A stretch of 64,000 nt of DNA from an uncultured Verrucomicrobiota bacterium (GTDB taxonomy: Bacteria; Verrucomicrobiota; Kiritimatiellia; CAYTQP01; CAYXEW01). Both the position numbers and the translations under genes were made by a program. This document shows, one piece after another, positions 3,312-55,135 of this stretch (the first letter of the stretch is position 1; each line of letters begins with the position of its first letter). The notes under the pieces are model-generated. The model was not told the origin of the DNA and made no database searches. It saw only the letters and a list, made by a program, of their open reading frames with translations. Location of the stretch: NCBI GenBank assembly GCA_964464115.1, contig CAYXEW010000001.1:8740-72739 (forward strand). Reading direction: 5' to 3'.

Positions 3312-3318
3312 CGACATT

Positions 3319-20617: not shown

Positions 20618-20975
20618 GGGGGCGACTGGCTTCGACGTGTAGGTTGAAGCATTTGTTGCGTGTCGAGGATATCGGTGGGCCTCGTAAATCATCCGGTAAA
20701 AACAATAAAAGCCAACCAAGAATTGGCCCTCGCAGCGTAACATAAGTCTGCGACGTCTCTACGTTGACGCCTGCTAGGCGATAGAGGCGACGACAGCAGG
20801 CTGGCTCCAAAGCCGGGCAGCCGGGCCGAGGAGTAAGATCTATTTCGTGGCCGCTGGTCCGATGATCAGTCTGTTCGTCGACAGTTCATCGGGCGAGATT
20901 AAATGACGGAATACACACGTAGATGCATATGTGACTCTTATGCGGACGGGGGTTCAATTCCCCCCGCCTCCACCA
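20618..20975 (+). ncRNA. ssrA: tmRNA (ssrA)
   Basis: The 5' end GGGGGCGACUGGCUUCGACG pairs with the 3' end CGCCUCCACCA to form a tRNA-Ala-like acceptor stem carrying the G3-U70 identity pair. A T-arm (GGGGGUUCAAUUCCCCC) and an internal tag ORF (...GCC AAC CAA GAA TTG GCC CTC GCA GCG TAA, peptide ...ANQELALAA) are present. Confidence 0.9.
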
Positions 20976-39879: not shown

Positions 39880-40650
39880 CTACCATCTGCACGCTACCGG
39901 ATAATGGTCAGACAGCATATCCAAAGGCGGGTCTGTCAACGGCTTTACGGCCGGTTTACACATCATCATTTCTTCATTGCAGAGGATGTAATCAATCCTC
40001 ATTTCCTCAGAGTGGGCTTTGTCTTCGCGAAGCATGGTGGGAATTGTCTTTCTGAACACGGACGTATGTGCCGGATCGTGCAGGCCCGCATCGAGCAACA
40101 TTTGCATAGGGGTGTAATCTATGGCTCCGCATTTATTGAGGTACTTTCTCGTCAGCTTGGGATGTTGCTTAATGCGGTCGGTCATCGTAACGCTTTCGTA
40201 GTGTGCGCGATCAAGCGGTGACAGAGTGTTCAGGTCACCCATCAGCAGCAATGGACCCCGTATGTCCTTCATTGCGTTCAGCAGGGTCTGCACTTCCCTA
40301 ATCCTGTCATTGCTGTTCCATGGCGAAAGGTGCGTAATCAATATATTTATGTCGAGTATTTGGACATGAATTGCGGCGTGGACAAAAGGGGCGTGGAATG
40401 CTTTTACAGGTCGAATAGGATAGCGCGAAAAGAGACCTATCTGAAAGCCGCTGCTGATCGCTTCTGTAATCCATGCATATTCGTAGCCGCACCGATTAGC
40501 TCTCTTGACGGTATCTTGTATGGAGCCCCAACAGCACAATTCATTAAAACCTGTAATATCATAGGGATGTTCAAGAAGCCAGCGGCACATATCTGCCCAG
40601 CGCTCCTCTTCCCGGCAGCCATTATAGATGTTATACTGGAGAACGTTCAT
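39880..40650 (-). CDS. endonuclease/exonuclease/phosphatase (EEP) family protein
   Basis: An N-terminal NVLQYNI and a C-terminal SDHYPV bracket the EEP fold. Confidence 0.7.
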   Translation of the reverse strand: MNVLQYNIYNGCREEERWADMCRWLLEHPYDITGFNELCCWGSIQDTVKRANRCGYEYAWITEAISSGFQIGLFSRYPIRPVKAFHAPFVHAAIHVQILDINILITHLSPWNSNDRIREVQTLLNAMKDIRGPLLLMGDLNTLSPLDRAHYESVTMTDRIKQHPKLTRKYLNKCGAIDYTPMQMLLDAGLHDPAHTSVFRKTIPTMLREDKAHSEEMRIDYILCNEEMMMCKPAVKPLTDPPLDMLSDHYPVACRW

Positions 40651-40662
40651 AGAGGCCCGGCC

Positions 40663-43600
40663 CTAGCTGTTTTTCAGGGTCGCTAGCATATCCCGCAATT
40701 TCTGCCCCATTGCGCTATGTTCAAACTTGAGAAACAGCTTACCCATGAAGCGAGAAGAACGCAGTGATGAGGTGAACCAGTAAGCCAATCGAGAATTGGG
40801 AAACAGGTAGGTTGGTAATTCCGTCTGTGTAAACGGCATATTCCAGTCAATGCCTTTGAATGCCGTAATATTGGGCATCATAAGAGTCTGAATCCAAGCG
40901 CAAGCAGCTGGATCTAATTGACCTTCAGCCCACTCTTCCGCCATTCCCTGCCTTAAAATGGCCTGATTGACAGACTCCCATATGTGGCCGCTGCCATTAT
41001 GCAGCCATTCTTTCCAGATATCGCCCTCTTCATCGACACAGGCCCTGCCGGTGTCTTTACTCAGTATTGGCGAAAGCTGCAGTGCATTATCAAAAATTCG
41101 GGTTACGTCCTGAATAAAGCGCTCGGGATCCGTCTGCTGGAGTGTGGGGGCATTGTGCAATGCCGGGTTACATCGATACAGTTCGAGGGCCCGCAGGAAT
41201 GCAGTGTGTTCATTGGGGACAAAGCAGGGTCGCTGCAGAGAAAGCAGTGTCAGCATGCGGCCCACTTTTCGCTGGCGCTCCAGAAAGGAATGCGGCGTCA
41301 TCAGGTGATTGTGAAAACCGATGGCGTTTTCCAAGTGGCGCAGGACCATGCCGCGCAAATGCAGGCGATATCCAAATTCAATATCCTCATAAGCCGCGTA
41401 GCGGTAGCGCGTGCTGAAAAGAACTTCTTCACGTATGACGAATGATCTCTTCAGTGAGCAGTTAGAGGTGTAGAGGCGGTCAAAAGGGACGACGGCGTCA
41501 TGGCTCATATCGTTGTATTTAAACTGCTGGCCGCCCGAACCCGTTATGTGTTCCATAAAGACGGTCTCGGGTAAGTCCGGATGCCAGAGGGTCAGTCCGA
41601 CAAAGGCCGTGTCTTCCTGCGGGAATCGATCGTGGCCACGTATATGGGTCGACAGAAAGTCCTTGCGCGGCTCGATATCATCGCCGGTAATGAGGATGAT
41701 TTTGCCCGCGGCCTGTTGTATCGCCAGGTTTCGAGCCGCTGCGGGACCGCCTTGACCGCAGTTGTCCAATACGCGGACATTCAGCATACTGTGTCTGGAG
41801 GCCTCTCGCTGTACGGCCTCGAGGTCCCCGTGATCATTGACAATGACAATTTCATACGTCCGCGGATCGATCGTCTGTTGCCGGTAGGCGTTCAGCGTCT
41901 GACCCAGAACATCGACCCGATCTTTTGTCGGAATAATGACCGAAAGGTCTACCGTGTCAGGATAGTTTCGTTTACTGATTTCGACGAAGCGATCATCGTG
42001 CCAGTCTTCAAGGGTTTTCATGAGGCGCCCAGCGGCAGCATCCCATGAAAAATTTGAACGAACCTGTTCCAGTGCCCGCTGACCGGTTTCGATCACTTCA
42101 TCTCTGCGATCAAGAATGGATGTAAGCTGTTCTGTCAGGCTGTCTTCGCGCGGTTGACACCAGTAAGCACCTTCTCCGAGAAAATAGTGATTGTAGTCAT
42201 AGCAGTTTTTGACGGGTACTTCATCGTAGGGAAGGTCGAAAAACATGCCCGAACGGGCAAACTCCATGGGGCCTCCGAAAGCGGGCATCAATGTGGGCAC
42301 CCCGACAGCAGCAGCATCCAGGATTTTCATAGCAAAGCCCTCCCCGCGAAACGGGGCCAGCTGGATATCCATGGAGGCGTACAACCTGATCAGGTCTTGC
42401 TTACTGAGGAATTCCCTGTGCCAGACAATACGCGGAAATTGTGGTTGTTCGGCGATCCACTTCTTGAGCTGCGCATCACTGGCCCCGGCCCCGTAATCCT
42501 TGATATGCAGGACAACCGGATCCCGCTCGCTGTAGGCGCGACCCAGTGCTTTTATGGCGATGTCCGTTCCGTAGCGGTAGAGATCATGGGAATTCGTCAC
42601 CATCAGCATTTGCAGTTCATCGTTATTATTCTTCCCCGCAAGGGCATCGGCATCCGGGTACAGCGCATCGATTTCCGTTGAATAGCCGAGGGGTACCGTT
42701 TGGCAGGCCTTTTCCGGAATTCCTATTTCCAGCAATGCATCCCGGTTAAAACCGGATACCGGTATTTTACGGAATTCATTGACTTGGACATGGCGCATCC
42801 AGAGATCCAGCTTCCGCCCTTCCATTCGGTAACGATAGTTTGTGCAGAAGAACTCGGCATTGATGTCACCGAACAGTGGTTTCCTGTAATAGTCTGGCCA
42901 GTAATGGGTCCATTTGACATGATAGGTACTGCGAGGCTGCGCAGACATACAGGCCCGCAGCATATTCTGATGATGCCTCTCAATGGAGTCATCCAGCTTG
43001 GTGGACATGGGAATACTCAGTGAGACGCCGCGTCTGCGGAGGGCTCCCATGAGATCAACAGTAGCCCATGTGAAGGCATTGGCTTTTGTAAAATCGACAT
43101 TCAGGTGGAGTCCTTTTTCAGCGCTCGGTCGGTTGCTAGTCCTGCGAGCCGCTTTTTCATTGTGGATACGGTCCTGTTCTCCCAGTGTTTCCAAATCCCA
43201 CTCGTAGCGGTTATTCCAGCGCGACAAAAACTGTTGCCAGTTCTCTTCATCTTTTTCCGTTCTTCCTTCGGTGGCCTGACCGTAGTGATATATTTTACTG
43301 GCAGGCGTATACCAGACACCATATCCGGCCTGCCGTGAGCGAAGGCAAAAATCGACGTCTTCAAAGCCGTTTTGGTAGCTTTCATCGAGGCCGCCCAGTT
43401 CGTCGTATACCTTTTTAGCTATCATGACGCAGGCGAAGGTGACGCACTGAAATTGACGCTGGTAGAGAGCGGAGGGCGTATCGGGCGGCATTCCGGGATT
43501 CAGATGGAGGGGAAAGCCCTCTTTGTCAAACCCCATTCCTGCATGCTGAATCTTTCCTGAATCCGGATAGAGGTGGCAATTGGCCAATACCCCGACGCGA

Positions 43601-43947
43601 TCTGTTGACTCCATCACAGCGACCATGTTGTCGAGCCAGCCCGGCGTAACAAAGGTATCATTATTGAGCAGGCAGAGCAGTTCGCCTTTGGCTTCTTTTG
43701 CGCCCCTGTTATTGTTGGTACTGTAAGACTTCCGGGTGTCATTGCGGAACGTTCTGATGGGAATATCGCCAGCCAGTCCGGACAGGTCGGGCTGTTCACT
43801 TCCGGCATCGTCAATCAGGATGATCTCCCGGGATACGCGGCCTGAGCAATCAACGATGGATTTCACACAGGCTTCGGTTAACTCCCTGCAGTTATAATAA
43901 GGGATAATAATTGATACCTTTGGGGCATCCTGTCTTTCCAGTGCCAT
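40663..43947 (-). CDS. large multi-domain glycosyltransferase (an N-terminal GT2, a central GT4-like region and a C-terminal GT2)
   Basis: VSIIIPYYNC...LIDDAGS (GT2), a central Rossmann GT-B-like region, then LSVIIPTKDR...IVIVNDHGD (a second GT2). It is 1094 aa. Confidence 0.75.
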   Translation of the reverse strand: MALERQDAPKVSIIIPYYNCRELTEACVKSIVDCSGRVSREIILIDDAGSEQPDLSGLAGDIPIRTFRNDTRKSYSTNNNRGAKEAKGELLCLLNNDTFVTPGWLDNMVAVMESTDRVGVLANCHLYPDSGKIQHAGMGFDKEGFPLHLNPGMPPDTPSALYQRQFQCVTFACVMIAKKVYDELGGLDESYQNGFEDVDFCLRSRQAGYGVWYTPASKIYHYGQATEGRTEKDEENWQQFLSRWNNRYEWDLETLGEQDRIHNEKAARRTSNRPSAEKGLHLNVDFTKANAFTWATVDLMGALRRRGVSLSIPMSTKLDDSIERHHQNMLRACMSAQPRSTYHVKWTHYWPDYYRKPLFGDINAEFFCTNYRYRMEGRKLDLWMRHVQVNEFRKIPVSGFNRDALLEIGIPEKACQTVPLGYSTEIDALYPDADALAGKNNNDELQMLMVTNSHDLYRYGTDIAIKALGRAYSERDPVVLHIKDYGAGASDAQLKKWIAEQPQFPRIVWHREFLSKQDLIRLYASMDIQLAPFRGEGFAMKILDAAAVGVPTLMPAFGGPMEFARSGMFFDLPYDEVPVKNCYDYNHYFLGEGAYWCQPREDSLTEQLTSILDRRDEVIETGQRALEQVRSNFSWDAAAGRLMKTLEDWHDDRFVEISKRNYPDTVDLSVIIPTKDRVDVLGQTLNAYRQQTIDPRTYEIVIVNDHGDLEAVQREASRHSMLNVRVLDNCGQGGPAAARNLAIQQAAGKIILITGDDIEPRKDFLSTHIRGHDRFPQEDTAFVGLTLWHPDLPETVFMEHITGSGGQQFKYNDMSHDAVVPFDRLYTSNCSLKRSFVIREEVLFSTRYRYAAYEDIEFGYRLHLRGMVLRHLENAIGFHNHLMTPHSFLERQRKVGRMLTLLSLQRPCFVPNEHTAFLRALELYRCNPALHNAPTLQQTDPERFIQDVTRIFDNALQLSPILSKDTGRACVDEEGDIWKEWLHNGSGHIWESVNQAILRQGMAEEWAEGQLDPAACAWIQTLMMPNITAFKGIDWNMPFTQTELPTYLFPNSRLAYWFTSSLRSSRFMGKLFLKFEHSAMGQKLRDMLATLKNS

Positions 43948-43964
43948 GACGCAAACCTCTTCTT

Positions 43965-45179
43965 CTATTTCGCCGTACCTCTATATGTCACTTCCATGTC
44001 GGCCTCCAGATTGGCGATACCGTAAGCCGGCTTGTCTGAAATCGCCTCAAAGGCAATACTTTCAGAACCGCCGATTGTTTCCGGCATATCCTTTTTTATT
44101 TCTGCGAGTCCCATACCCAGCCGGAAAGGGCCGGGGCAGATATTCATACGAATGTTCACCTTTACGGCTATGCGCTCGCCCGCTTTCATGGGGCGAATGG
44201 GGGTGTGCGCAGAGCGGGAATTATAGTCGTAGGCCGTAAAGCCCATCATGGTTTTGAGTTGAATACTAATGAGCGGCTCTTCTATATCAACATGGACCGT
44301 GAACTCCGCTCTAATAAAGTATTCTTCACCCGTGCGCGGGTGGATCACCTCGACACCTTTGTCATCGGTCAATACCATTTTTTCAAATGACATACGCGGC
44401 CCCGGCGCATAATCCGAGCCGGAGTTTTCCGGTGCGTCGGTCGTACTCAGTCTGGCCAGATAGGTGTCGGTTACTTCTTTGGGGTCACCGGTGCAAATCA
44501 TGTAACCCTTGTCCAACAGGATAGCCTCATCGCAGAGCATTTGAACGGCATTCAAATCATGGGATACAAATAGGATGCTGGTACCGTTCTTCTTCAATTC
44601 CTCGATGCGGCGAAAGCAGCGGGACTGGAAGCCGATATCGCCCACTGACAAGATCTCATCGATGAGTAACAGGGTGGGGTTTACTTCAATAGCAACCGCA
44701 AATGCCAGGCGTGCAAACATGCCGGAGGAGTATGTCTTGACGGGATAATCGATGTGTTTTCCGATGTCGGCAAAGGCGATAATGCGGTCCAGTTTTTCTT
44801 CCAGTTCATGGGGCTGGTAGCCATAGATGGATCCCGAGAGCATGACATTTTCCCGGCCGGTAAAATCGGGATTAAAACCCGCTCCCAGTTCGAGCAGTGC
44901 CGCGACGTTGCCCTCCACGTGAATAGATCCGACCGTCGGTTCCAGCAAACCGGCAACCATTTGCATGAGCGTCGACTTTCCACTGCCGTTTTTGCCGATA
45001 ATGCCGAGCACCCGGCCGGCTTTCAGCTCAAAGGATACATCCCGCAGAGCCCAAAATTCATTGGCGGTCGGCATCTTTAAAAAAGGGAACAGATAGCGCA
45101 TTCGATTGCCTGCTTTCAAATCAGGATACGACTTTCCCAAGTGTTCCGCTTTTACCAGCAGGTTCAGGCTACAAGACAT
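43965..45179 (-). CDS. wzt: Wzt/TagH-type polysaccharide ABC exporter ATPase with a C-terminal glycan-binding beta-sandwich domain
   Basis: GIIGKNGSGKSTL, LSGGM-type signature and Walker B, then a C-terminal extension of about 150 aa. I place the start at MSCSLNLL (ATG at 45179, GAGG upstream), 7 nt after the wzm stop; the track ORF extends further 5'. Confidence 0.8.
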   Translation of the reverse strand: MSCSLNLLVKAEHLGKSYPDLKAGNRMRYLFPFLKMPTANEFWALRDVSFELKAGRVLGIIGKNGSGKSTLMQMVAGLLEPTVGSIHVEGNVAALLELGAGFNPDFTGRENVMLSGSIYGYQPHELEEKLDRIIAFADIGKHIDYPVKTYSSGMFARLAFAVAIEVNPTLLLIDEILSVGDIGFQSRCFRRIEELKKNGTSILFVSHDLNAVQMLCDEAILLDKGYMICTGDPKEVTDTYLARLSTTDAPENSGSDYAPGPRMSFEKMVLTDDKGVEVIHPRTGEEYFIRAEFTVHVDIEEPLISIQLKTMMGFTAYDYNSRSAHTPIRPMKAGERIAVKVNIRMNICPGPFRLGMGLAEIKKDMPETIGGSESIAFEAISDKPAYGIANLEADMEVTYRGTAK

Positions 45180-46041
45180 CGGCGAACCTCCGTTTAACGG
45201 CCTTGAACCATCCGGCGACCAGTAACAGCAATAGAATATTGCCCAGCATCTGGTATATCCACATACGCATTTGCAACGGTACGCCGAGAATACAGTTTTC
45301 ACGAATTTGCAGCACGGCCACCGCCACCGGATTGATCCACAGGATTACGCGCCAGGCTTCCGGAATAAAATTGGCAGGATAGATGATCGGTGTCAGGAAA
45401 AAGAGGATATTCATCAGCAGGCCTATGCCGTGACTGAGATCTCTGATAAAAACGCCTGCGGCCGCCAGAAAGAGGGCCGCACTGAGTGTGAAAAGGGTCA
45501 GTGGAAGCCAGATGAGGGGAAGGTAAAGGGCGGTCAGCGGAATATAGCCGAGCACATAGTAAATCAGCACAAAGAGTAACCCGGTGGAGATGAGCGCATG
45601 AAAAAGGGAAGACCCCAGCACTACCGCCGGCAGTAGCTGTACGGGAAAGGCAATACGTTTCACGTAGTTGGGAGACTGCAGTATCAGGGCGGGAGCCCGT
45701 GAAACCGTTTCCACAAAACAGTTAAAAGGAATGAGACCACAGAAAAACATAACAACAAAATAGGCCGGCTGATCCTGCGCGCCCCAGCGCATTTTAAAAA
45801 AATAGCCAAAGACGAGGGTATAGGTTGCCAGCAATGTGAGAGGCGTAATAAGGCTCCACAGCAGGCCGAGCCCCGAGCCGCGGTAGCGTGCGGCAATTTC
45901 CCGGCGCGTAAGGGCCAAGAGAAGCCCCCTGTGTTTGATAAAGGAACCCATTGTTTCAAATGAGGAACGGAATATGGCAACTAGAGTATTCATCGTCGCG
46001 GTGATTTCCTCAGACAGGTCGACCGTTCCGGGAATACCCAT
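45169..46041 (-). CDS. wzm: ABC-2 type polysaccharide exporter permease (Wzm)
   Basis: ABC-2 permease with 6 TM helices. It lies immediately upstream of, and is coupled to, wzt. Confidence 0.8.
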   Translation of the reverse strand: MGIPGTVDLSEEITATMNTLVAIFRSSFETMGSFIKHRGLLLALTRREIAARYRGSGLGLLWSLITPLTLLATYTLVFGYFFKMRWGAQDQPAYFVVMFFCGLIPFNCFVETVSRAPALILQSPNYVKRIAFPVQLLPAVVLGSSLFHALISTGLLFVLIYYVLGYIPLTALYLPLIWLPLTLFTLSAALFLAAAGVFIRDLSHGIGLLMNILFFLTPIIYPANFIPEAWRVILWINPVAVAVLQIRENCILGVPLQMRMWIYQMLGNILLLLLVAGWFKAVKRRFADVL

Positions 46042-46268
46042 GCCGGCACATCTGCATTATTACCATGCGAGAGAACCCGATCACTTTTTACGCTCAGCTC
46101 CAAATTCATCGGTCGAAAATAGGCAAGCACCCCTGGATTGTCAAGCTATTCCCCCGCCGCCGTTGAGCCTTTTCACCGATCGCCGGTATGCATTTTTGTG
46201 CTTGTTTAGTGAACCTAAAAAGGCAACTGTATCTGGGTGCCCCAAGTGAGGTGCATTGATCTGCGTTT

Positions 46269-47216
46269 ATGGAAAAAACAACTACAGCTTATGCCCCGGC
46301 GGTGTCGATTGTCATTCCCACGTTGAATGCAGCTTCATATATGGAACCGCTACTCCGAGCAATTACCACCCAGCACTACGACAACCTCAGGGAAATTATC
46401 GTGCTGGATTCGCAATCGACGGACCGCACCTGTGAACTGGCCGCGCTGTATGAGAATGTTCGGGTGGAGACCGTTGAACAGTTTTCCCACGGAGGTTCAC
46501 GGAATATGGGGACGGTTATGAGCACCGGTGATATCGTCGTTTTTCTGAGTCAGGATGCACTGCCGGCCAACAAGCACTGGTTGGAAAATCTCATCAAACC
46601 GTTTCAGGACGCTGATGTCGCTGCTGCTTTTTCCCGTCAGGTGCCGCGTCCTGATGCCAACCCCATGGAACGCTATTTTCTGTTGACGCACTTTCCTGAG
46701 AAAAACAGGCGTTACGGTCCTGCGCCCGATGGGCGAGAACTGTATTTTCAGGACGATGTCTTCTTTTCCAACGTCAGCTCGGCCCTCCGGCGCCATCTGG
46801 CTCTGGATTTCCCTTTTTCAGATGATATCATTATGAGCGAAGATCAGCAATTTGCCCGCGATGTGCAGCGGGAAGGTTTTGCGGTGGCATATGCGGCAGA
46901 ATCAGTGGTCTGTCACTCGCATAAGTACACGCTTCGCACCGTCTTTCAGCGCTATTTTGACAGTGTCTATTCCCTGACCCAAGTTTTTCCGTCGCATGGT
47001 TTTACGCACAGCATTCGTCTCGGAGCGCGCTATGCCTTCGCCGAATGTTTATACATTCTGCGCGTCAGACCATTCTGGTTTCCTTACTATCTGCTGTATG
47101 CGCTGAACCGCGCGGCAGCCGTTTTTCTGGCGCACTGGGCAGATCGTATACCGCTGTGGCTGGTAAAAAAAATGAGTATGCACAAGTATTACTGGGATCA
47201 TGAACAGAGAATGTGA
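46269..47216 (+). CDS. GT2 family glycosyltransferase
   Basis: VSIVIPTLNAASYM...IVLDSQSTDRT...SQDA. Confidence 0.8.
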   Translation: MEKTTTAYAPAVSIVIPTLNAASYMEPLLRAITTQHYDNLREIIVLDSQSTDRTCELAALYENVRVETVEQFSHGGSRNMGTVMSTGDIVVFLSQDALPANKHWLENLIKPFQDADVAAAFSRQVPRPDANPMERYFLLTHFPEKNRRYGPAPDGRELYFQDDVFFSNVSSALRRHLALDFPFSDDIIMSEDQQFARDVQREGFAVAYAAESVVCHSHKYTLRTVFQRYFDSVYSLTQVFPSHGFTHSIRLGARYAFAECLYILRVRPFWFPYYLLYALNRAAAVFLAHWADRIPLWLVKKMSMHKYYWDHEQRM

Positions 47217-49563
47217 GAATATAACAGCTCTGCCGACTAACGGGCCTGAAGTGAGCGTCATTCTCGTAAACTATAACGGGAAAAAGTGGCTGGAGAACTG
47301 CCTGAGAAGTCTCCGCCGTACACGAGATGTGTCTTTTGATATTATTCTGATCGACAATGCATCCGTTGACGGAAGTCTCGACTGGCTCCGGGAACACGCG
47401 CCGGACATCCAGGTGCTGTCTCAGGATGTCAATATAGGATTTGGGCGCGCTAATGCGATCGGTGTAAGCGAAGCGCGCGGTTCCTATGTCGCGTTTCTGA
47501 ATACGGATACTGCGGTGGACCCCGATTGGCTGTCGGCACTGCTGCATGGCCTCAGAGAAGATGAATCCATCGGCGCCGTGACATCGTTGATGACCTCGAT
47601 GGATCATCCTGAGATGATCAATGCTGCGGGCGGGGGAATGACGTGGACCGGTTACAGTTACAGGCGTTACTGCAACTGGTTTATTGACGATTATGCTGCA
47701 CTGCATGGTGACAGTTGCGCTGATGTATTCTTTGCTTCCGGAGCTGCCATGCTGATGAAAAAGGAGACGTTTCTGGAAGTGGGCGGCTTTGATGACGCCA
47801 TGTTCATGTATCATGAGGATGTCGATCTTGGATGGCGCTTATGGCTGGCCGGTGTTCGGGTCGCCGTCTGTCCTGCATCACGCGTACGGCATGCCGACAC
47901 CGGTTTCGAACAGGCTGCTGAAGCGATGTCTTTTTCCGAGGTGATGGGTGCGCGCCACAATGTCAGAACGCTCCTGAAGTGCTTTGAATGGCGGCAGGCC
48001 TTGATAGCCCTCTTTTATATAGCCATGATGTATGCCTATAAAAAACGCTTTGGCTTATTGTTTAAAGTCGCGTTATGGAATCTATATAAGGGGCCTTCAA
48101 CTATGGCAGAACGCCGGCGCATTCAAAAGGGTCGCGTTCGATGCGACCGGGAACTGCTGGACCGCTCTAGAATTGATCCATATGCGGCATTTCCGAGTCC
48201 GCTCTACCGCTTTAAGCCGGATGTGCCGCCCGAAGGACTCCTGATGAGCCACCACCTCTACCCGGGCGAAGATTCAGCTCTGGGGCGACTCGGGGAAGGG
48301 TGGTCAGCAAAGGTTGAGACAGATGGAAAGCCCTGTCGTATGATGGCGGATGCAGCCCACTGCGTCATGCTGGCCCGGCCCGGTCAGAAGGGGGCACTAC
48401 ATATCCATTTCAAGGGACTCAATGTGCACGGTACCACAACGCTGTATCTACACTGCAATGAACAATTTCTGAAAACAGATATACGCGATGGCCAATGGCA
48501 CGAGATGCAGATAAATGTGAATGTGCCGGAATCGGGACTGCTACAGATAAGAATGGGTCTTCAGGAACAGCATACAGTTCGATCGATTCACCGCACGCAT
48601 CTGAGCGTGAAATGCATCGTTTTTGAGCCCGATGAATCGGTTGAGGTAAAAACCCGGCCCGTTACTACCGCCGTTGTCATACCGCATATGAACAAGGGTG
48701 GTCCAATAGCTGAAGTAATCCGAGCCCTCGAACGCCAGACCGTGCTGCCCACTGAAGTGATTATTGTCGATGACGGTTCGCGTGTCCAACCTTTGGAAGA
48801 GCTGAAAGAAGTGGTTTCCAAACCTTGGAAGATACCCGTGCAACTCATTTGCCAGGCACATGCCGGACCCTCTGTCGCCCGGAACAGAGGGGTCGACGCT
48901 GCCAGCTCTGACATCGTGCTTTTTATTGGTGATGACATTTGTCCTGGGGAATGCTGGCTCGAACATCATCTGCGCACCCACGAGGAGTTGGGGCCGGGCC
49001 ATGCTGTTTGCGGTTATACGGTGTGGGACGATGACCGTATGCGCGTATCACCGCTTTTGAACTATGTGAATGAACACGGCGAGCAGTTTGGTTATGCGTA
49101 TTTCACGCAGCGCGGTGCTTTGCCTTTTACCTGCTTTTACACCAGCAATATATCGATAGCCCGCGATCTGCTGGAAATCTATCGCTTTGATCCGTGGTTT
49201 ACCGATGCCTGCTGGGAAGACTGTGAACTGGGCTATCGGCTGTGTTGTGCAGGAGTGCGCATCATCTACGAAGAGCGCGCCTCTGCGCGTCACTATCATC
49301 CCATGAATGCGACCGCTTTTTACCGCCGCCAGCAAAAAGCGGGGCGCCTCTATGCGACCATGGTGCGCGAGCGCTGGCCGCGCTTACAGGCCCATTTTTA
49401 TAATCCGTCTGAGCGCATGTTAGAGCGCTTGAAACGGTTTGAATGGTTGATTGAGGTCGGTGTCAAAACAATCTGTCTTGTGGATCGTTTTAATATTCCG
49501 CTGCCAAAGGCCGTATACCGTTATTCACTGGCGCTGGTCTATTGCCTCAGTATGCGGGAGTGA
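47200..49563 (+). CDS. tandem double-GT2 glycosyltransferase
   Basis: Two separate GT2 cores: VSVILVNYNGKKWL...ILIDNASVDGS...NTD at the N-terminus, and AVVIPHMNKGGPI...IIVDDGS...GDD at about residue 490. It is 787 aa. Confidence 0.8.
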   Translation: MNRECENITALPTNGPEVSVILVNYNGKKWLENCLRSLRRTRDVSFDIILIDNASVDGSLDWLREHAPDIQVLSQDVNIGFGRANAIGVSEARGSYVAFLNTDTAVDPDWLSALLHGLREDESIGAVTSLMTSMDHPEMINAAGGGMTWTGYSYRRYCNWFIDDYAALHGDSCADVFFASGAAMLMKKETFLEVGGFDDAMFMYHEDVDLGWRLWLAGVRVAVCPASRVRHADTGFEQAAEAMSFSEVMGARHNVRTLLKCFEWRQALIALFYIAMMYAYKKRFGLLFKVALWNLYKGPSTMAERRRIQKGRVRCDRELLDRSRIDPYAAFPSPLYRFKPDVPPEGLLMSHHLYPGEDSALGRLGEGWSAKVETDGKPCRMMADAAHCVMLARPGQKGALHIHFKGLNVHGTTTLYLHCNEQFLKTDIRDGQWHEMQINVNVPESGLLQIRMGLQEQHTVRSIHRTHLSVKCIVFEPDESVEVKTRPVTTAVVIPHMNKGGPIAEVIRALERQTVLPTEVIIVDDGSRVQPLEELKEVVSKPWKIPVQLICQAHAGPSVARNRGVDAASSDIVLFIGDDICPGECWLEHHLRTHEELGPGHAVCGYTVWDDDRMRVSPLLNYVNEHGEQFGYAYFTQRGALPFTCFYTSNISIARDLLEIYRFDPWFTDACWEDCELGYRLCCAGVRIIYEERASARHYHPMNATAFYRRQQKAGRLYATMVRERWPRLQAHFYNPSERMLERLKRFEWLIEVGVKTICLVDRFNIPLPKAVYRYSLALVYCLSMRE

Positions 49564-49577
49564 GCACCTGAACGCAA

Positions 49578-50756
49578 TTAATGATTCATACGCCTGGGCA
49601 GAGCCATAATACTGAAAAGATAAGAGCAGACCCCGAGCTGTGTGCCGTTAACGAAGCATAATAATCCGAATAAAAGCGGACGCGCCATGTCGAGATCACC
49701 AAAGCCCCTGACAAACCAGATAATGACGACGTACATGCAGAGCAGTACTCCGATCAGCAACAGGCTTCCGGCCAGCAGCGCACCCACTTCAAAAGACAGC
49801 TTTTCGTACAGCCAGGCCACGACCGGGTCATGCCGTATACCGGTCAGGTGGGCAAATGCCTTCGCGAGCATGCCGACACTCATAAACTGCATACTTACAA
49901 TATTGAGTACCCCCATAATCAGCATGAAGTGAATATCGATCCGGCGAGATGCAATCATGACCGGACCGAGCGCCAGTGGCAATATCAGGACGAGACTGAT
50001 GATCCAGAGGGTGATGCCGGGAATGACAAAAACCGTACTGGGGCTGTGCATCATCATAAAACGCAAATGCCGCCAGCCGTCGCGGAATGTGCGGAGTTTT
50101 GATTCACCTTCCCGCGGATGGTATTCAATATCGACAAACTGAATGCGCAAATTCTTGTAGATGGCCTTAATAATCATCTCACTGGCAAATTCCATACCGG
50201 TTGTGATACAGTCGAGAGCCCGGTATGCACTTTTTGTGATTGCCCGGTAGCCGCTGTGAGCGTCTTCTATATCTTTTCGGTGCCACATAAGCTGCACCAT
50301 TTTGGTCAGCAAGGGGTTGCCCAGATGCTGATGCAGAAAGGGCATGGCTTTGGGTTTGACGCCCTGCAGCCGGTTGCCAAGCACAAAATCTGCCCGGCCG
50401 TCCAGTACGGGCTGTAGAATATCCTGTATACGTGACAAATCATAAGTGGTATCGCCATCTGCCATCACCAGAATGGAATAGCGGGATTCTTCAAAACCTT
50501 TGCGAATGGCTGAACCATAACCCTTTCGGCATTCCCGGACAATAACGGCCCCAGCTTCTTTGGCGCATTCGATGGAACGGTCTGTGGAACCGTTATCGGA
50601 GACGATCACTTCAAACGGAATCTGCATGGCGGTGAGGGCCTCGCGGGCATCCGTCACCACTCTGGCAATGGACTGCTCCTCATTGAGGCAGGGAATGACC
50701 ACCGATACGCCAACATGTTCATCCGGCCCTGTTGACTGCTGTGCTGCGTTGTTCAT
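49578..50756 (-). CDS. membrane-anchored GT2 polyprenyl-phosphate glycosyltransferase (GtrB/ArnC/Ppm1-like) with a C-terminal module of about four TM helices
   Basis: VSVVIPCLNEEQSI...VSDNGSTDRS...ADGD. The C-terminal 150 aa or so are strongly hydrophobic with about four TM helices, and could be a fused GtrA-like flippase. Confidence 0.75.
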   Translation of the reverse strand: MNNAAQQSTGPDEHVGVSVVIPCLNEEQSIARVVTDAREALTAMQIPFEVIVSDNGSTDRSIECAKEAGAVIVRECRKGYGSAIRKGFEESRYSILVMADGDTTYDLSRIQDILQPVLDGRADFVLGNRLQGVKPKAMPFLHQHLGNPLLTKMVQLMWHRKDIEDAHSGYRAITKSAYRALDCITTGMEFASEMIIKAIYKNLRIQFVDIEYHPREGESKLRTFRDGWRHLRFMMMHSPSTVFVIPGITLWIISLVLILPLALGPVMIASRRIDIHFMLIMGVLNIVSMQFMSVGMLAKAFAHLTGIRHDPVVAWLYEKLSFEVGALLAGSLLLIGVLLCMYVVIIWFVRGFGDLDMARPLLFGLLCFVNGTQLGVCSYLFSIMALPRRMNH

Positions 50757-50762
50757 GATTGT

Positions 50763-52748
50763 TTACTCCGCTGACAGGCGGTACAGAATAAAATGACCGC
50801 CTCTTTTTTTAGTACCCTTCGGCACGCTCCTTTTGGGATGGTGCTGTATGTGGGAATATAGCGGATGATGACTGTGCTCAGAAGCCCTAATTGTGGTAAA
50901 ATCCGGCGGGCCGTTGAGTGACAGGTAAAAGGTGTTGGTTGTCTGTGCTGCCAGATGTTGTGCGAGACTCTCCACCGCTTCGGGATCATCGCATTCTTCG
51001 AGATGCAGTTCATAGCTTCGGTGGCCGTAGAGAAACCGCAGCGGGGCGGCAAAGCCGGGTTGATCGCACAGGATGAACGCGTCAGCCGGCAGCGCTTCAT
51101 TCACCTCATGATACCAGGCTGTGAGGCCGGGCCAGTCCCGGTTGCGGGCCATGGCGGCTGTTTGCCGGACCGTGAATCCCGTTAAAAGTAGAAAGGCAGC
51201 AATATAAACCATGGTTGCATAGGTGGGTTTCCGCCGCCCGGCCAGCTGAGCGAGCAGGGCGGTGGTCGCACAATAGCCGATAATGATCAGGGGTAGAATG
51301 ACGGGCACAAAGCGCCTCGTAAGCCACATCATGAACTGGTCATTGAATATGTTCAGCGTCAGGACAGCCATGACCAGCATGGAGCAAAATGACCAGATGC
51401 GCAGTGAGGTCTCCCGGCAGCGAAGCAGGATGATAGCGATGCCGGCAATACCCATGGCGAGCCCCACGAATCCAAACAGCACCTTGAGACGAACAAAGTT
51501 CCAGGCATTGTGATCGCTGAGCGCTTCAAAAATCCAGTACATCGGCGTATTTTCAGCCTGCTGGAAAAGGTCCATGAATTCATCGTTGCGCAGCACAAAC
51601 TGCGGTCGGATAAACCATCCCCACAGGGCATACAGGATGAATGCCGCGGTATACAGAAAACGGGTTTTATAAATGCCGCTGAGAAGTATATCGCGCTGTC
51701 GCTGCTTTAACAGCAAGGCGGCTCCGATAATCACAAGGCCCGTCACGGTGAAACCTTTGAGGAAAGGCAGGACGAGGCCGGGGAGCGGATGGTAATAGGG
51801 TGCCAGTATGCGCATATGCAGCCACGCGTGAATACCCAGCATCGAGGTTAGGGAAAAAGTAATGAGATATGCATAATGTTGTTTGGTGACCAGCGTGTGC
51901 CAGAGAAGGAGCGCCAACAGGGGGACGAGGATGAGGATGGTGTCGTAGCGCGTCATCCATGCCAGACCCAACGCGATACCGGCCAGCGTGGCCGCAAAGA
52001 TACGATGCCTGGATCGTTCTACTTCGCAGAGCCAGAACGCACCCGTGAGGAGCAGGAACTGAGTCAGCAGCTCCGCGGTCGGAAAACGGCTCTGCCACAA
52101 CTGTGCCGGATTCAGCATCAGTGCCGCTGATGCCAGTAGACCTGCTTTCCATCCATAGGTGCGGCTGATGAGCGCATACAGAATGAGAATGGAGCCGATC
52201 TGCAGTATGGCGTTGACAGACAGCGCCCCTCCGATTCCGAAAAAATCATACGCTACGGCGAGCAGTGATGGAAAAAAATGGTAAAACTGTGGTGACAGGC
52301 GTTGGTTCGGCAGCAGCCGCATACCCAGAAAGGGTTCCGTGATAGAGTACAGGTCCCGACTGACCGCGCGTAGCTGATCGGGTGGCAGGGCCGTATAGTC
52401 ATCGGCATTGAGCTGTATGTTACCATCTCTGGCAATGGAGGCGGCCGTGTGCAGATAAACGCCCGGATCCCATCCCCCGAGCAGAAGCTCGCCGGCAGGC
52501 AGTGATAACCGGAGGCTTATCATAATAAGTGCTGCCAGAATCCATCCCGTCCACCGGTTTCGGTCGACGGGGATGAGAACTTTTTTCCTGACAGCCAGCG
52601 TGATCAGAAATGTCGTGAGGCCACCCCCCGCAGTCAGCGCAACCCAACCGTTAAACTGCCCCGCCTCCGCCAGAACATAGGCCGTGTATCCGGCCCCGGC
52701 GACCAGCCCGAATAAGAGGAGGGGTATATATGTCATCAGTGCACTCAC
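50763..52748 (-). CDS. polytopic GT-C fold glycosyltransferase (ArnT/PMT/GT39-GT83-like)
   Basis: 661 aa with more than 10 TM helices and a periplasmic C-terminal domain. Its stop is 4 nt from the GtrB-like gene, the classic donor-synthase plus GT-C transferase pairing. Confidence 0.6.
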   Translation of the reverse strand: MSALMTYIPLLLFGLVAGAGYTAYVLAEAGQFNGWVALTAGGGLTTFLITLAVRKKVLIPVDRNRWTGWILAALIMISLRLSLPAGELLLGGWDPGVYLHTAASIARDGNIQLNADDYTALPPDQLRAVSRDLYSITEPFLGMRLLPNQRLSPQFYHFFPSLLAVAYDFFGIGGALSVNAILQIGSILILYALISRTYGWKAGLLASAALMLNPAQLWQSRFPTAELLTQFLLLTGAFWLCEVERSRHRIFAATLAGIALGLAWMTRYDTILILVPLLALLLWHTLVTKQHYAYLITFSLTSMLGIHAWLHMRILAPYYHPLPGLVLPFLKGFTVTGLVIIGAALLLKQRQRDILLSGIYKTRFLYTAAFILYALWGWFIRPQFVLRNDEFMDLFQQAENTPMYWIFEALSDHNAWNFVRLKVLFGFVGLAMGIAGIAIILLRCRETSLRIWSFCSMLVMAVLTLNIFNDQFMMWLTRRFVPVILPLIIIGYCATTALLAQLAGRRKPTYATMVYIAAFLLLTGFTVRQTAAMARNRDWPGLTAWYHEVNEALPADAFILCDQPGFAAPLRFLYGHRSYELHLEECDDPEAVESLAQHLAAQTTNTFYLSLNGPPDFTTIRASEHSHHPLYSHIQHHPKRSVPKGTKKRGGHFILYRLSAE

Positions 52749-54208
52749 TGTTCAGGTGTTTCCCCGGCTTTAAACTTCGCGGCATATTGGTGGAGGATGG
52801 AAGGCGGGCAGTAGACACCGTTTTCGACACAACTGTCAAAGATGTCAGCCGCATAGGCGCTGCTTTCTTGCGGATAGTGAAGGCCGTGACCGAATGCCAT
52901 GTATTTTGCTGTCACGCTGATGAGTTTCTTTCTCCATTGTTGCATAGCGCCTGACGCCGACCATGTGGCCAGTGTAAACACGATGAGTAAAACACTGAAT
53001 ACGGCGGACAAAATGCTTTTTCGACTGAAGAACGCGGGGTAGAGTCGGAGAAGGACCGCCAGTGTGACGGTCAAGAATAAGACCGAATTGATGCGGTAGC
53101 GAACCTCGAGAGCCTGAGCAACACCGAAACCGGACCGGCCGACTGCCGTAGCGGCAGCCGTCAGCAACAGGTAAATCAAAAAGGCATAGAGCCCCGGCAC
53201 CTTTCGGTAACCGTGCTGAATCGTGATGAATCCGAAAAGAAAAAGCAGCAGGGCACCCAGTGCCAGCGCAGCCTGACCATTGAGAAAGATGGAGCCCAGG
53301 AAGAGCAGTATATAGTGAATGATACGAACGGGTTGGAAAAGGCTTTCCTGAACATCCGGATGATGTTCGGGATGGGCGTAGTTATAAAAGTAGGCTGTTG
53401 CGAGGAACAGTCCGAGCAGTACCAGCAAGATGAGGTCCATTACACGATGGCGACCATCTACTCCGTTGCGGAGCCAAACAGCATCCCCCCATAAGAGCAT
53501 AAATGTTCCCAATATGGCAGGCACCGTAAAGATGCCTGATCCAGTCGAAAAGGATGCCAGAAAAGCACTGATACAAAACAATATACGTACATAGCTTGCG
53601 CGTGATGAGAAAAACAGGATGCAGGCTGTAAACGAGAAAAAAAGCGCAGCATTAAATTGTACGGCCGTCGTGCTCCACATCATGTTAATCCATGCAAAAG
53701 GAGCAAAGAGCATGGCCCCCATCAATGGCAGTTGAACCGGTGAAACACTTTTTCTCAAATGCATGAGAAGTGCTGCGTAGAGCGCTGCCAGGTAGCCCGT
53801 CCCCGAAATCGTTATCCATTTTAATTGGACACTGCCGGAAAGAGATGAGCACAGCTCCGCAGTCAAACGGGTCAGCAGTATGCGATGCTCATTATGAAGA
53901 TGAAAAAGCGATGTTAGCGTAAAGCGCTCCTGAAGGGGGCGGTTCATATAGAGAAGGATCGCGTCAAAGTCATCCCAGGATGGAATATTTATAGCGTAGC
54001 GAGCGATGAGGAAGAAGTGGACAAAAGGAAACAGCAGTATCAGAACACAGATAGCCGCATGGCGTGTCCTGCGGGGCAGTTTATGAGCATAAAAGCCCCA
54101 TAGACAGGCCAACGCGATGCAGACTGCTGTCAGACTCAATGAGGTAAGTACCGGCAGTGTGCTTGAAAATAGTAGAAAATTTGTAAAATGAACGTACAAA
54201 AGCACCAT
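52745..54208 (-). CDS. second polytopic membrane protein (GT-C-like or glycan polymerase-like), translationally coupled to the GT-C gene
   Basis: 487 aa with more than 10 TM helices. Its stop overlaps the downstream start by 4 nt. Confidence 0.5.
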   Translation of the reverse strand: MVLLYVHFTNFLLFSSTLPVLTSLSLTAVCIALACLWGFYAHKLPRRTRHAAICVLILLFPFVHFFLIARYAINIPSWDDFDAILLYMNRPLQERFTLTSLFHLHNEHRILLTRLTAELCSSLSGSVQLKWITISGTGYLAALYAALLMHLRKSVSPVQLPLMGAMLFAPFAWINMMWSTTAVQFNAALFFSFTACILFFSSRASYVRILFCISAFLASFSTGSGIFTVPAILGTFMLLWGDAVWLRNGVDGRHRVMDLILLVLLGLFLATAYFYNYAHPEHHPDVQESLFQPVRIIHYILLFLGSIFLNGQAALALGALLLFLFGFITIQHGYRKVPGLYAFLIYLLLTAAATAVGRSGFGVAQALEVRYRINSVLFLTVTLAVLLRLYPAFFSRKSILSAVFSVLLIVFTLATWSASGAMQQWRKKLISVTAKYMAFGHGLHYPQESSAYAADIFDSCVENGVYCPPSILHQYAAKFKAGETPEQ

Positions 54209-54320: not shown

Positions 54321-54749
54321 ATGAGTTTCAGTATATTACTTGTTGAAAAAGAAAACGTACTCGGATCGCGGGTAATGGAATGGTGTCAAGCCCCGAATAC
54401 GACTCTACAACACATACCAAGTCTTACGGACGGAATTGACTGGTTGCATCAGCATACCTGTCATTTGCTTATCCTCGATATGGACTCACATGAAATGAGG
54501 CAATTGCTGGCGCTCAAACTGATTAACAGCAGCTTTCCCGAATTAAACGTCATCGCGGTTGGCTGCCGCCACTCATTGGCATTGCGCTGTGAAGCGAAAA
54601 ATATGGGGTGCGTTGAAGTGCTCTCAAAGCCGGTCGATACGGATACGTTGAAAGCGGCGCTGGAACACTTCCGTCAAGGTGATTCGTTATGCGGGTCAGA
54701 AGAGACCATTCCTTGTTTGGATTTTACAACAATAGGAGTGCCAGTATGA
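54321..54749 (+). CDS. receiver-like (CheY-fold) protein with a degenerate acidic pocket
   Basis: ILLVEKEN...LLILDMD...VIAVG...K follows the receiver topology, but the N-terminal DD pair is replaced (EKE). Confidence 0.45.
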   Translation: MSFSILLVEKENVLGSRVMEWCQAPNTTLQHIPSLTDGIDWLHQHTCHLLILDMDSHEMRQLLALKLINSSFPELNVIAVGCRHSLALRCEAKNMGCVEVLSKPVDTDTLKAALEHFRQGDSLCGSEETIPCLDFTTIGVPV

Positions 54750-55135
54750 AAACGAGAGTATTGCTGATAGAAGACCATACGTCGGTGCGTGCCGGTGTAG
54801 AGCATGACTTGCAGCAGATTGATTGTGAAACGATCGATGCTGTAACCGAGGATGATTGCATTCGGGTTTTGGCTCACGGCGATGCAGATGTCGTTCTGCT
54901 CGATGCTTTCACAGGAGAAATAGACGGGCTGACTGTTTTACAGCATATTCATACTTTTTATCCAGATATACCTATGATTGTCGTTGCGGGTGAGGAATCC
55001 TTTATCATGGGGCTGCCCCCCTCCAGGGAGGAGACCACAGATCTGCGGGGCAACCGGCAGTCAGGTCTCGAATCGGTAATATGGGAAATCGAACACTTCC
55101 TGGATCCGCTAATGACGGGCACCGATGGCAAGTGA
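54746..55135 (+). CDS. single-domain response regulator (receiver only)
   Basis: MKTRVLLIEDH...VVLLDAFTGEIDG...MIVVAGEES. An AGGAG ribosome-binding site is present, and the ATG overlaps the upstream stop (ATGA). Confidence 0.7.
   Translation: MKTRVLLIEDHTSVRAGVEHDLQQIDCETIDAVTEDDCIRVLAHGDADVVLLDAFTGEIDGLTVLQHIHTFYPDIPMIVVAGEESFIMGLPPSREETTDLRGNRQSGLESVIWEIEHFLDPLMTGTDGK

Follow-up and report, generated by a model that had tools for sequence, protein, structure and literature searches.

In the E. coli O9a and K. pneumoniae O3 systems (WbdA, WbdD, Wzm, and Wzt with a carbohydrate-binding domain [CBD]) and in the TET operon of P. syringae, a CBD-bearing Wzt forms an exporter with Wzm, and this exporter shares one operon with a soluble multi-module polymerizing glycosyltransferase (GT) of GT4-GT4 composition (PMC7820976, PMC11231755). 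WbbB of K. pneumoniae O12 and Raoultella terrigena, encoded beside Wzm/Wzt-CBD, combines three GT modules (GT99, GT102, and GT103), with a long coiled coil between and a Kdo-transferase terminator, in one protein of ~1100 aa (PMC11231755). In the Gtr systems of Salmonella and Shigella (GtrA, GtrB, and a type-specific GT-C) and in the GT136 pentofuranose system, a polyprenyl-phosphate sugar synthase-type GT2 adjoins a GT-C and backbone/ABC-exporter genes (PMC11127046), while mycobacterial arabinogalactan is made by cytoplasmic GT2 polymerases, exported by Wzm/Wzt, and then modified outside by several GT-C enzymes using a polyprenyl-phosphate sugar (PMC13018209, PMC11127046). The concept proposed below agrees with systems already characterized, namely modular polymerases (PMC11231755), TET operons (PMC7820976), the export of capped chains that depends on the CBD (PMC9445017), and glycosylation in the periplasm by three components (PMC11127046).

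Here, we analyzed a block at positions 39880 to 54208 of a 64,000-nt stretch of DNA (from here on, the window) from an uncultured Kiritimatiellia-like bacterium of the PVC group. All nine ORFs listed in an earlier reading of this DNA, made from the sequence only, were recovered at the same positions, and their domain content agreed with Pfam and NCBIfam. That reading had called the block an island, for which we found no compositional sign; its GC content of 0.51-0.535 is the same as that of the flanking DNA. The genes are tightly spaced, with overlaps of 4-17 nt and gaps of 6-17 nt, which indicates three operons. In the minus-strand operon with the order Wzm-Wzt-GT1094-EEP, the Wzm gene is first. 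A divergent intergenic region of 227 bp (46042..46268) separates Wzm on the minus strand from the plus-strand operon for GT2_315 and the 787-aa GT and is likely the shared promoter region of both operons. On the minus strand, the sequence at 46144-46116 resembles a promoter, with a match at 10/12 positions; such promoter-like sites were not enriched relative to shuffled sequence. We note that two more genes, for a 244-aa DPM/PpgS-like GT2 (30399-31133) and an LpxG/YaeI-like phosphoesterase, lie 8-9 kb upstream and could be relevant to the glycan or the envelope.

We consider it likely that the block is an ABC transporter-dependent surface-glycan assembly locus whose product is glycosylated in the periplasm from a polyprenyl-phosphate sugar. 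The core of the sequence-only reading, i.e., cytoplasmic assembly by soluble multi-module GTs, export by Wzm/Wzt-CBD, and glycosylation of the exported glycan outside the membrane by a GtrB-like synthase plus GT-C, is backed by protein families, topology, structure, and synteny in distant relatives.

Wzm (45169..46041, minus strand; 290 aa) is the ABC-2 permease subunit of the glycan exporter (ABC2_membrane PF01061, 93 bits) with about 6-8 predicted hydrophobic segments, and in nine relatives an orthologue of 42-68% identity is encoded immediately upstream of Wzt. Wzt, the ATPase, contains ABC_tran and a C-terminal carbohydrate-binding domain (Wzt_C, 41.8 bits against a Pfam cut-off of 30.4), and the two genes overlap by 11 nt. 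A 445-aa GTG ORF listed earlier for Wzt was rejected; based on the gene call on the identical Logan contig L002, Wzt has 404 aa and is encoded at 43965..45179 on the minus strand. The nearest solved structure is Aquifex aeolicus Wzt (8dku; E=8e-68, residues 33-358), and the window protein shares the NBD-plus-CBD layout of A. aeolicus WzmWzt (8dku, 7k2t; PMC9445017). Because the CBD aligns poorly to 8dku, reaching A. aeolicus residue 350 only, the residues of the 3-O-methyl-sugar pocket could not be mapped on Wzt. The presence of the CBD is the sole ground for the proposal that the polymer is terminated by a cap; neither a terminator enzyme (methyltransferase, kinase, or Kdo transferase) nor a coiled-coil ruler was found in the window, which counts against our preferred reading and sets the block apart from O9a/O3 and TET, with their WbdD-like methyltransferase/kinase terminator and coiled-coil ruler. 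Beyond the family level, no sequence relationship of the block to these systems was detected. Mycobacterial Wzt, in contrast to the window protein, is without a CBD; the mycobacterial donor, decaprenyl-phospho-arabinose, is made via a UbiA-type enzyme and epimerases, neither of which is present in the window, and the NCBIfam galactan-exporter models scored far below their cut-offs on the block proteins.

The gene at 40663..43947 (minus strand) encodes a soluble GT of 1094 aa without a predicted transmembrane (TM) segment. Pfam matched GT2 at residues 9-250, GT4 at about 300-645, and GT2 at 668-907, and an AlphaFold2 model (pLDDT 91) has the corresponding GT-A (1-270), GT-B (280-650), and GT-A (665-905) folds followed by a helical C-terminal domain (912-1093). 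DXD/ED/EX7E-type residues are kept in each of the three modules, and the catalytic-type residues D97, E196/D197/D199, E536, D756/D757, and E854/D855 are invariant in 58 homologues. The protein resembles WbbB in size and module number but is GT2-GT4-GT2 in composition, also unlike the GT4-GT4 polymerases, and instead of a coiled coil has only the compact helical domain, in which the longest helix in the model has 38 residues. The GTs of the block had been described as unusually large, and this description does not hold, as multi-module GTs are normal in this pathway, with three modules in WbbB and two in WbdA and ORF6-O7 (PMC11231755). Twelve nt downstream, and probably co-transcribed with this gene, lies the gene for a cytoplasmic EEP-family phosphoesterase of 256 aa (39880..40650, minus strand; Exo_endo_phos PF03372, 44.9 bits); a sequence search gave no solved relative of this protein, and 93 other loci had no orthologue.

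On the plus strand, GT2_315 (46269..47216; 315 aa; PF00535, 68.9 bits) is a soluble GT2, and its gene overlaps by 17 nt that of a soluble 787-aa GT2-GT2 enzyme (47200..49563). The latter has two PF00535 stretches, which align in the same order with the first and third modules of the 1094-aa enzyme (30% identity), and a central region (about 240-480) without a Pfam match; the fetched loci contain no full-length orthologue. As for the 1094-aa enzyme, no TM segments were predicted in these two cytoplasmic GTs.

GT2_392 (49578..50756, minus strand; 392 aa) is a membrane-anchored GT2 with the architecture of P. furiosus DPMS (5mlz), i.e., with 3-4 C-terminal TM helices, and has the motifs DNGSTD and DGD. 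Its predicted function is that of a polyprenyl-phosphate hexose synthase of the GtrB/DPM-synthase/AglJ type. NCBIfam matches were to AglJ (1.4e-47), dolichyl-phosphate hexose transferase (3.6e-26), and PpgS (1.2e-19); all score far under their equivalog cut-offs, so that they identify neither a sugar nor a linkage, which counts against our preferred reading. GT-C661 (50763..52748, minus strand; 661 aa; PF13231, 31.9 bits, cut-off 26.1) is a GT-C glycosyltransferase of the PMT_2 (GT39/GT83-like) type with a loop motif, GGWDPGVY (residues 91-98), that is invariant in 34 homologues. The gene at 52745..54208 (minus strand) overlaps that of GT-C661 by 4 nt and encodes a 487-aa protein, previously described only as a second polytopic protein; it is polytopic, but is itself a GT-C fold glycosyltransferase, belonging to a large family without a Pfam or NCBIfam model. 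About 11 TM helices were predicted in each of the two GT-C proteins. The arrangement resembles three-component periplasmic glycosylation systems, to which streptococcal GacI/GacK/GacL also belongs, and differs from them in having no flippase gene (GtrA/SMR/MATE/Wzx-like), two GT-C enzymes for one synthase, and the soluble GT2_315 as the best-conserved partner of GT-C661.

The AglJ match raises the alternative that GT2_392, instead of supplying a donor for side chains, starts the whole glycan on a polyprenyl monophosphate carrier, in the way that archaeal AglJ uses dolichyl phosphate, after which the soluble GTs would extend it, Wzm/Wzt would flip it, and a GT-C would act as ligase or oligosaccharyltransferase, moving the chain en bloc to the final acceptor. 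Consistent with this, AglJ is the top match, neither the window nor any related locus examined has a PGT/PNPT or WaaL-like ligase, there is no flippase dedicated to a monosaccharide donor, and in L011 the GT-C gene is directly followed by one for a fused PglK/MsbA-type ABC exporter. However, the AglJ score of 162 bits falls far short of the equivalog cut-off (325), GT-Cs of the PMT_2/ArnT type transfer single sugars, and priming genes such as wecA are commonly outside ABC-dependent loci. To our knowledge, no Wzm/Wzt substrate carried on a monophosphate has been described in bacteria, and we regard this alternative as very improbable.

Comparison with relatives divides the locus into two conserved modules. 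The first, module A, comprises Wzm, Wzt with its CBD, and the 1094-aa GT, and its order is kept in all nine PVC-group relatives with at least 46% identity and enough flank. Module B comprises GT-C661 and GT2_315, whose orthologues (for GT2_315, 44-51% identity and 96% coverage) are side by side in 6/6 other loci (L003, L010, L011, L012, L093, and L094), which tie the GT-C661 family to glycan clusters; judged by this gene order, GT2_315 is a conserved partner of the PMT_2-type GT-C. In two of the six, the pair is separated by a membrane GT2 of the DPM-synthase-like kind, and orthologues of GT2_392 (50-51% identity) are next to GT-C in L010 and L012. By the same comparison, the EEP phosphoesterase, the 787-aa GT, and the second GT-C are not conserved parts of the system; no fetched locus has an orthologue of any of the three. 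FkbM methyltransferase or carbamoyltransferase genes lie near loci of relatives.

The two modules could belong to independent, side-by-side systems, with Wzm/Wzt and the soluble GTs making one polymer, and GT2_392 and both GT-C enzymes modifying secreted or envelope proteins (PMT/Ppm1-like O-glycosylation), lipid A/core (ArnC/ArnT-like), or another glycan. PMT_2 includes protein O-mannosyltransferases and ArnT; large secreted FG-GAP/Chlam_PMP/CBM proteins, possible glycosylation targets, often neighbor module B loci; and two findings that count against our preferred reading also fit, namely that L012 and L094 have module B without detected Wzm/Wzt in their 10-kb flanks, and that homologues of the second GT-C occur in unrelated contexts and are solitary in L007-L009. 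In L093, the only ABC ATPase gene is one cut at the locus end. By contrast, three diverged genomes, those of the window, L010, and L003, have modules A and B next to each other; in L010, whose proteins are 35-59% identical to those of the window, the genes for GT-C, membrane GT2, GT2_315, Wzm, Wzt, and the big GT lie on one strand in an apparent single operon. Moreover, further polysaccharide-type GTs surround every module B locus, as expected for glycan side-chain systems. We find two separate systems unlikely.

In the preferred reading of a single surface-glycan locus, an enzyme encoded outside the window would make a polyprenyl-diphosphate sugar; the scan of ORFs of at least 150 aa, in which no methyltransferase or kinase was found either, bore out the earlier statement that the window has no priming PGT/PNPT or NDP-sugar synthesis genes. 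At the cytoplasmic face, an adaptor and a polymer of repeat units would be assembled by soluble Leloir GT modules, of which homology shows six (three in the 1094-aa enzyme, one in GT2_315, and two in the 787-aa enzyme). A Wzz-type chain-length regulator would not be expected in an ABC transporter-dependent pathway. The CBD of Wzt would read a non-reducing-end feature of the finished chain, and Wzm/Wzt, as homology and synteny show, would export the lipid-linked polymer. GT2_392 would, by homology, make a polyprenyl-monophosphate hexose, which another protein would flip and from which the two GT-C enzymes would transfer the sugar; the GT-C fold and genetic linkage point to this periplasmic step, with the exported glycan as the presumed acceptor. 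Neither a donor flippase (GtrA/SMR/MATE) nor a ligase was found in the window, which, like the absence of priming and NDP-sugar genes, counts against this reading.

The exported glycan would finally be attached to lipid A-core, protein, or another acceptor. A variant differing only in this last step is possible but doubtful; in it, the product would not be an LPS O-antigen but an exopolysaccharide, either capsule-like or secreted, or a glycan linked to S-layer or other proteins. WaaL is absent from the window, CBD-bearing Wzm/Wzt-type exporters also serve Gram-positive S-layer glycans (compare PMC2943079), and relatives carry sulfotransferase or carbamoyltransferase genes; on the other hand, KpsD/E, Wza, and other outer-membrane export genes were not found in the window, the nearest solved Wzt is that of an O-antigen exporter, and the weak LpxG-like gene nearby suggests that the organism makes lipid A. 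Judging from its genes, this 14-kb cluster for an ABC-exported cell-surface polysaccharide is real but rather unremarkable.

The sequence-only reading had described the block at 39880-54208 as a set of nine ORFs for the synthesis and export of a glycan. All nine ORFs are present, their assignments are supported by Pfam and NCBIfam, and the feature is real and was, overall, read essentially correctly. The genes form three operons. The first, on the minus strand, consists of genes for the ABC-2 permease Wzm, the ATPase Wzt (404 aa; 43965-45179, from a gene call on an identical Logan contig), a 1094-aa GT2-GT4-GT2 protein (GT1094; 40663-43947), and an EEP phosphoesterase (39880-40650). The second, on the plus strand, encodes a 315-aa GT2 (GT2_315; 46269-47216) and a 787-aa protein with two GT2 domains (GT787; 47200-49563), and the third, on the minus strand, encodes a 487-aa polytopic protein without a family match (GT-C487; 52745-54208), a 661-aa PMT_2 GT-C (GT-C661; 50763-52748), and a 392-aa GT2 (GT2_392; 49578-50756). 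Within operons, genes overlap by 4-17 nt or are separated by 6-17 nt, and intergenic gaps in the block are at most 227 bp. Based on hydropathy, the three soluble GTs have no TM segments, GT2_392 has 3-4 at its C-terminus, and each polytopic protein has about 11. The block had also been called an island; because its GC content (0.51-0.535) equals that of the flanks and the flanking genes are housekeeping genes (GlnE, SecA, response regulators, TrpS, ScpA/B, PheA, and EF-G), it carries no mark of horizontal acquisition, and we rejected that label. Two overlapping plus-strand ORFs in different frames (54321-54749 and 54689-55135), each for a lone response-regulator receiver domain, are separated from the GT-C operon by 112 bp and divergent to it; they may regulate the locus or represent one frameshifted gene.

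Wzm matches the ABC-2 permease family PF01061 at 93.2 bits, and the ATPase domain of Wzt (ABC_tran, 76.8 bits) is that of a Wzt/TagH-type nucleotide-binding subunit. The closest solved relative of Wzt is the O-antigen Wzt of Aquifex aeolicus (E=8e-68 to 1e-67), and TarH and TagH match at 1e-52 to 1e-43. The C-terminus carries a Wzt_C carbohydrate-binding domain (CBD; PF14524, 41.8 bits; gathering score 30.4), which is also present on the Wzt orthologues of four related loci (L001, L003, L006, and L010). We gave up mapping the cap-pocket residues of the A. aeolicus protein onto the window Wzt because the two CBDs align too poorly for the pocket to be read. Among the window ORFs scanned (150 aa or longer), none is a chain terminator (methyltransferase, kinase, or Kdo transferase). 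A terminator, in most cases located on a coiled-coil ruler protein, may be encoded elsewhere in the genome, or one of the six GT modules could add the cap. The ORF scan also bore out the earlier statement that no priming PGT/PNPT is encoded in the window; the primer gene need not lie in an ABC-dependent locus, and a Wzz-type regulator is not to be expected in this pathway.

The polymerizing cytoplasmic GTs are encoded with the transporter as three soluble proteins with six modules. GT1094 is predicted to fold (pLDDT 91) into a GT-A domain (residues 1-270), a GT-B domain (280-650), a second GT-A domain (665-905), and, at the C-terminus, a compact helical domain (912-1093). Catalytic-type residues in all three modules are invariant across 58 aligned homologues (D97; E196/D197/D199; E536; D756/D757; E854/D855), and therefore all three are probably active. 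The C-terminal domain has no Pfam match and contains an amphipathic stretch that is a weak sign of membrane binding; because its longest helix in the model spans only 38 residues, GT1094 lacks a coiled-coil ruler like that of WbdD or WbbB. A PDB sequence search with GT1094 returned generic GT2 matches alone (e.g., K4CP, PglI, ppGalNAcT, and TarS), and Foldseek of the model against the PDB returned generic GT-A/GT-B folds (ppGalNAc-T, K4CP, TarS, and RmlT). Since these neighbors are only generic GT2 and GT4 enzymes, the donor sugar and linkage cannot be named, and we dropped the attempt to derive them from the fold. Modules 1 and 3 of GT1094 have collinear counterparts in the two GT2 modules of GT787, at 30% identity. 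The central region of GT787 has no Pfam match; residues from about 320 to 485, between the GT2 modules, look beta-rich and occupy the place of the GT4 module in the 1094-aa paralogue. The GTs had been singled out as unusually large, but the ABC-dependent glycan pathway typically uses multi-module GTs this large (PMC11231755), and their size is therefore no distinguishing trait.

The best genome match is a Kiritimatiellia metagenome-assembled genome (55% identity). Kiritimatiellia supply the closest named proteins, with Verrucomicrobiota and Planctomycetia next, and all window proteins looked up are singletons in a 90%-identity clustering; the taxonomic placement is based on these cluster proteins. 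For synteny, we compared the nine window proteins with 93 other fetched loci using tblastn. The order Wzm, Wzt with CBD, GT2-GT4-GT2 (module A) is kept in all nine loci that have a big GT at least 46% identical to GT1094 as well as an upstream flank (L001, L003, L004, L005, L006, L010, L013, L014, and L039). Remoter homologues of the big GT (29-39% identity, mostly from soil), found in a metagenome scan, have no ABC ATPase nearby. In module B, an orthologue of GT2_315 (44-51% identity, 96% coverage) adjoins a PMT_2-type GT-C in all six other loci (L003, L010, L011, L012, L093, and L094), and in L010 and L012 an orthologue of GT2_392 (50-51% identity) lies between the two. The GT2_315 orthologue is tied to the PMT_2-type GT-C more tightly than the membrane GT2 resembling DPM synthase is. 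For the EEP phosphoesterase, GT787, and the second GT-C, we detected no orthologue in any of the 93 other loci, and on this comparison these three are lineage-specific additions. The relatives have accessory genes for FkbM and other methyltransferases (L001, L006, L011, and L094), carbamoyltransferases (L003, L093, and L094), a sulfotransferase (L011), and NDP-sugar epimerases/dehydratases. In the Kiritimatiellia-like loci L001, L003, L004, L006, L093, and L094, glycan genes are interleaved with genes for carbamoyltransferases, FkbM methyltransferases, and large secreted proteins with FG-GAP, Chlam_PMP, beta-helix, CBM6/35, trypsin, or GDSL-lipase domains; none of these genes is present in the window.

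The genes for the proposed periplasmic glycosylation are linked to those for backbone synthesis and export in the window, L003, and L010. The two modules adjoin in the window and L003, and in L010, from a coral metagenome, the genes for GT-C, membrane GT2, GT2_315, Wzm, Wzt, and the big GT lie on one strand. Because this linkage is kept among proteins that are only 35-59% identical, it is the main evidence for a functional tie between the GT-C branch and the exported polymer. Alternatively, module B may serve another target, e.g., proteins or lipid A, a reading permitted by the PMT_2 family identity of its GT-C and by those module B loci without nearby Wzm/Wzt; the threefold adjacency of modules A and B argues against this.

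Within this branch, the best NCBIfam match of GT2_392 is AglJ (1.4e-47), followed by dolichyl-phosphate hexose transferase and PpgS, all under the equivalog cut-offs. Its layout is that of DPM synthase and GtrB, and it has a DGD motif, as predicted for a polyprenyl-phosphate sugar synthase. GT-C661, in which the loop motif GGWDPGVY is invariant, has the GT-C fold of the transferase component of three-component periplasmic glycosylation systems. No ORF in the block encodes a dedicated flippase (GtrA/SMR/MATE/Wzx-like). A 115-aa ORF (50753-51100) was rejected as a GtrA-like flippase; it lies inside the GT-C gene and has no Pfam match. A second GT2 resembling polyprenyl-phosphate sugar synthases (244 aa, no TM helices; PpgS 1.6e-29, AglJ 3.5e-29) is encoded 9 kb upstream of the block (30399-31133, plus strand) and could provide one of the two GT-Cs with a further lipid-linked donor.

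The protein previously described only as a second polytopic protein is indeed polytopic, and its identity can be refined to a GT-C. GT-C enzymes have 7-13 TM helices and, following the first TM region, a small extracytoplasmic domain with a conserved acidic residue. GT-C487 fits this pattern, with about 11 TM helices and a WDDFD loop in which D79 and D80 are invariant in 16 sequences, and it resembles solved GT-C enzymes in structure. The pattern D-x-x-D/E, then H, then R recalls the key GT136 residues D31, E34, H106, and R349 (PMC11127046), with different spacing and compared by published residues only. GT-C487 has no Pfam or NCBIfam match, and no model of either database covers the membrane domain in any of the 26 family members tested. 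A word-indexed search had returned 17 matches, suggesting a rare family; an exhaustive profile search returned 14,730 representative clusters (50% identity) at E<=1e-3, of which 3,499 are at E<=1e-30, and we rejected that idea. GT-C487 homologues elsewhere are found in unrelated contexts. The closest relatives have an N-terminal DUF4214 domain, and Bacteroidota members are extended at the C-terminus by about 120 aa. A 683-aa neighbor in L008 was rejected as a homologue of GT-C661, to which it has no similarity. The EEP phosphoesterase, also lineage-specific, has no solved relative by sequence and only a weak xth match.

The reading best supported for the block is a standard ABC-transporter-dependent pathway combined with periplasmic glycosylation. 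Homology, topology, and synteny show that the block encodes six soluble Leloir GT modules, the CBD-bearing Wzm/Wzt exporter, a GT2 resembling polyprenyl-phosphate hexose synthases, and a pair of GT-C transferases; the GT modules would build the polymer and Wzm/Wzt would export it in lipid-linked form. By analogy with characterized systems, an enzyme whose gene lies elsewhere would prime the glycan on Und-P, the chain would be ended by a cap read by the CBD, a lipid-sugar donor would be flipped and its sugar moved onto the exported polymer, and the polymer would be ligated to its acceptor (PMC9445017, PMC11231755, PMC7820976, PMC11127046). None of the terminator, primer, flippase, and ligase is encoded in the window. 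The acceptor class may be that of an O-antigen, a capsule/EPS, or a protein-linked glycan; the Wzy_C/WaaL-type ligase that would mark an O-antigen is lacking in the window. A calcineurin-like metallophosphoesterase gene (31232-32209, minus strand) with weak matches to YaeI (6e-26) and the chlamydial lipid A enzyme LpxG (7.5e-20, far under its cut-off) is a hint of lipid A synthesis by a PVC-type route in this organism.

A different scheme, in which an AglJ-like GT2 primes the glycan on a monophosphate carrier and the GT-C is an en-bloc transferase, may also be considered. The absence of PGT, ligase, and flippase genes throughout the loci examined is compatible with it; nothing speaks positively for it, and we know of no bacterial precedent. 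More specifically, we regard it as very improbable that the pair of GT-C and GT2_315, with the AglJ-like GT2 where present, serves to prime and transfer a PVC-group glycan built on polyprenyl monophosphate and is not a side-chain decorator. If it did, Wzm/Wzt would flip a monophosphate-linked polymer, a GT-C would be the ligase, and bacteria would have a counterpart to the AglJ/AglB logic of archaea.

Under the favored ABC-dependent pathway, module A functionally resembles the systems of Escherichia coli O9a, Klebsiella pneumoniae O3 and O12, and the Pseudomonas syringae TET operon, and module B resembles the Gtr, GT136, and Gac-type three-component systems and mycobacterial galactan/arabinan logic. 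The window differs from these systems in its GT2-GT4-GT2 composition without a visible terminator or ruler, in having two GT-Cs per one synthase and no flippase gene, and in pairing a GT-C with a conserved soluble GT2. No homology of its GT modules to WbbB (GT99/GT102/GT103) or WbdA (GT4-GT4) was detected, with only generic PDB sequence and Foldseek matches. We found no paper on Kiritimatiellia surface glycans.

Elsewhere in the window, about 4 kb (1-4166) have no ORF >150 aa, tandem repeats, or Rfam match, and the sole hit, to PTPS_related (membrane protein) at 2868-3311, is sub-threshold; this region may hold the remains of a gene or stem from faulty assembly. A tmRNA gene (20618-20975, plus strand; 186 bits) and two minus-strand tRNA genes (20432-20505 and 14784-14857) are present. 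A gene for a PIG-L family de-N-acetylase (23259-24125) adjoins one for a Xer-type tyrosine recombinase (24134-25012), both on the minus strand; the same RNase III/integrase neighborhood occurs in L007, adjoining a homologue of the second GT-C.

The locus leaves the current model of ABC-transporter-dependent glycan assembly unchallenged. Its most useful by-products are the Pfam-less family to which GT-C487 points, a large GT-C family that domain databases miss, and the conserved GT-C/GT2 pair. Together with its relatives, the locus defines a conserved PVC-group module of Wzm, Wzt with CBD, and GT2-GT4-GT2 with a linked GT-C/GT2 module, and both modules are a starting point for work on the envelope glycan in a lineage that is uncultured and degrades polysaccharides.
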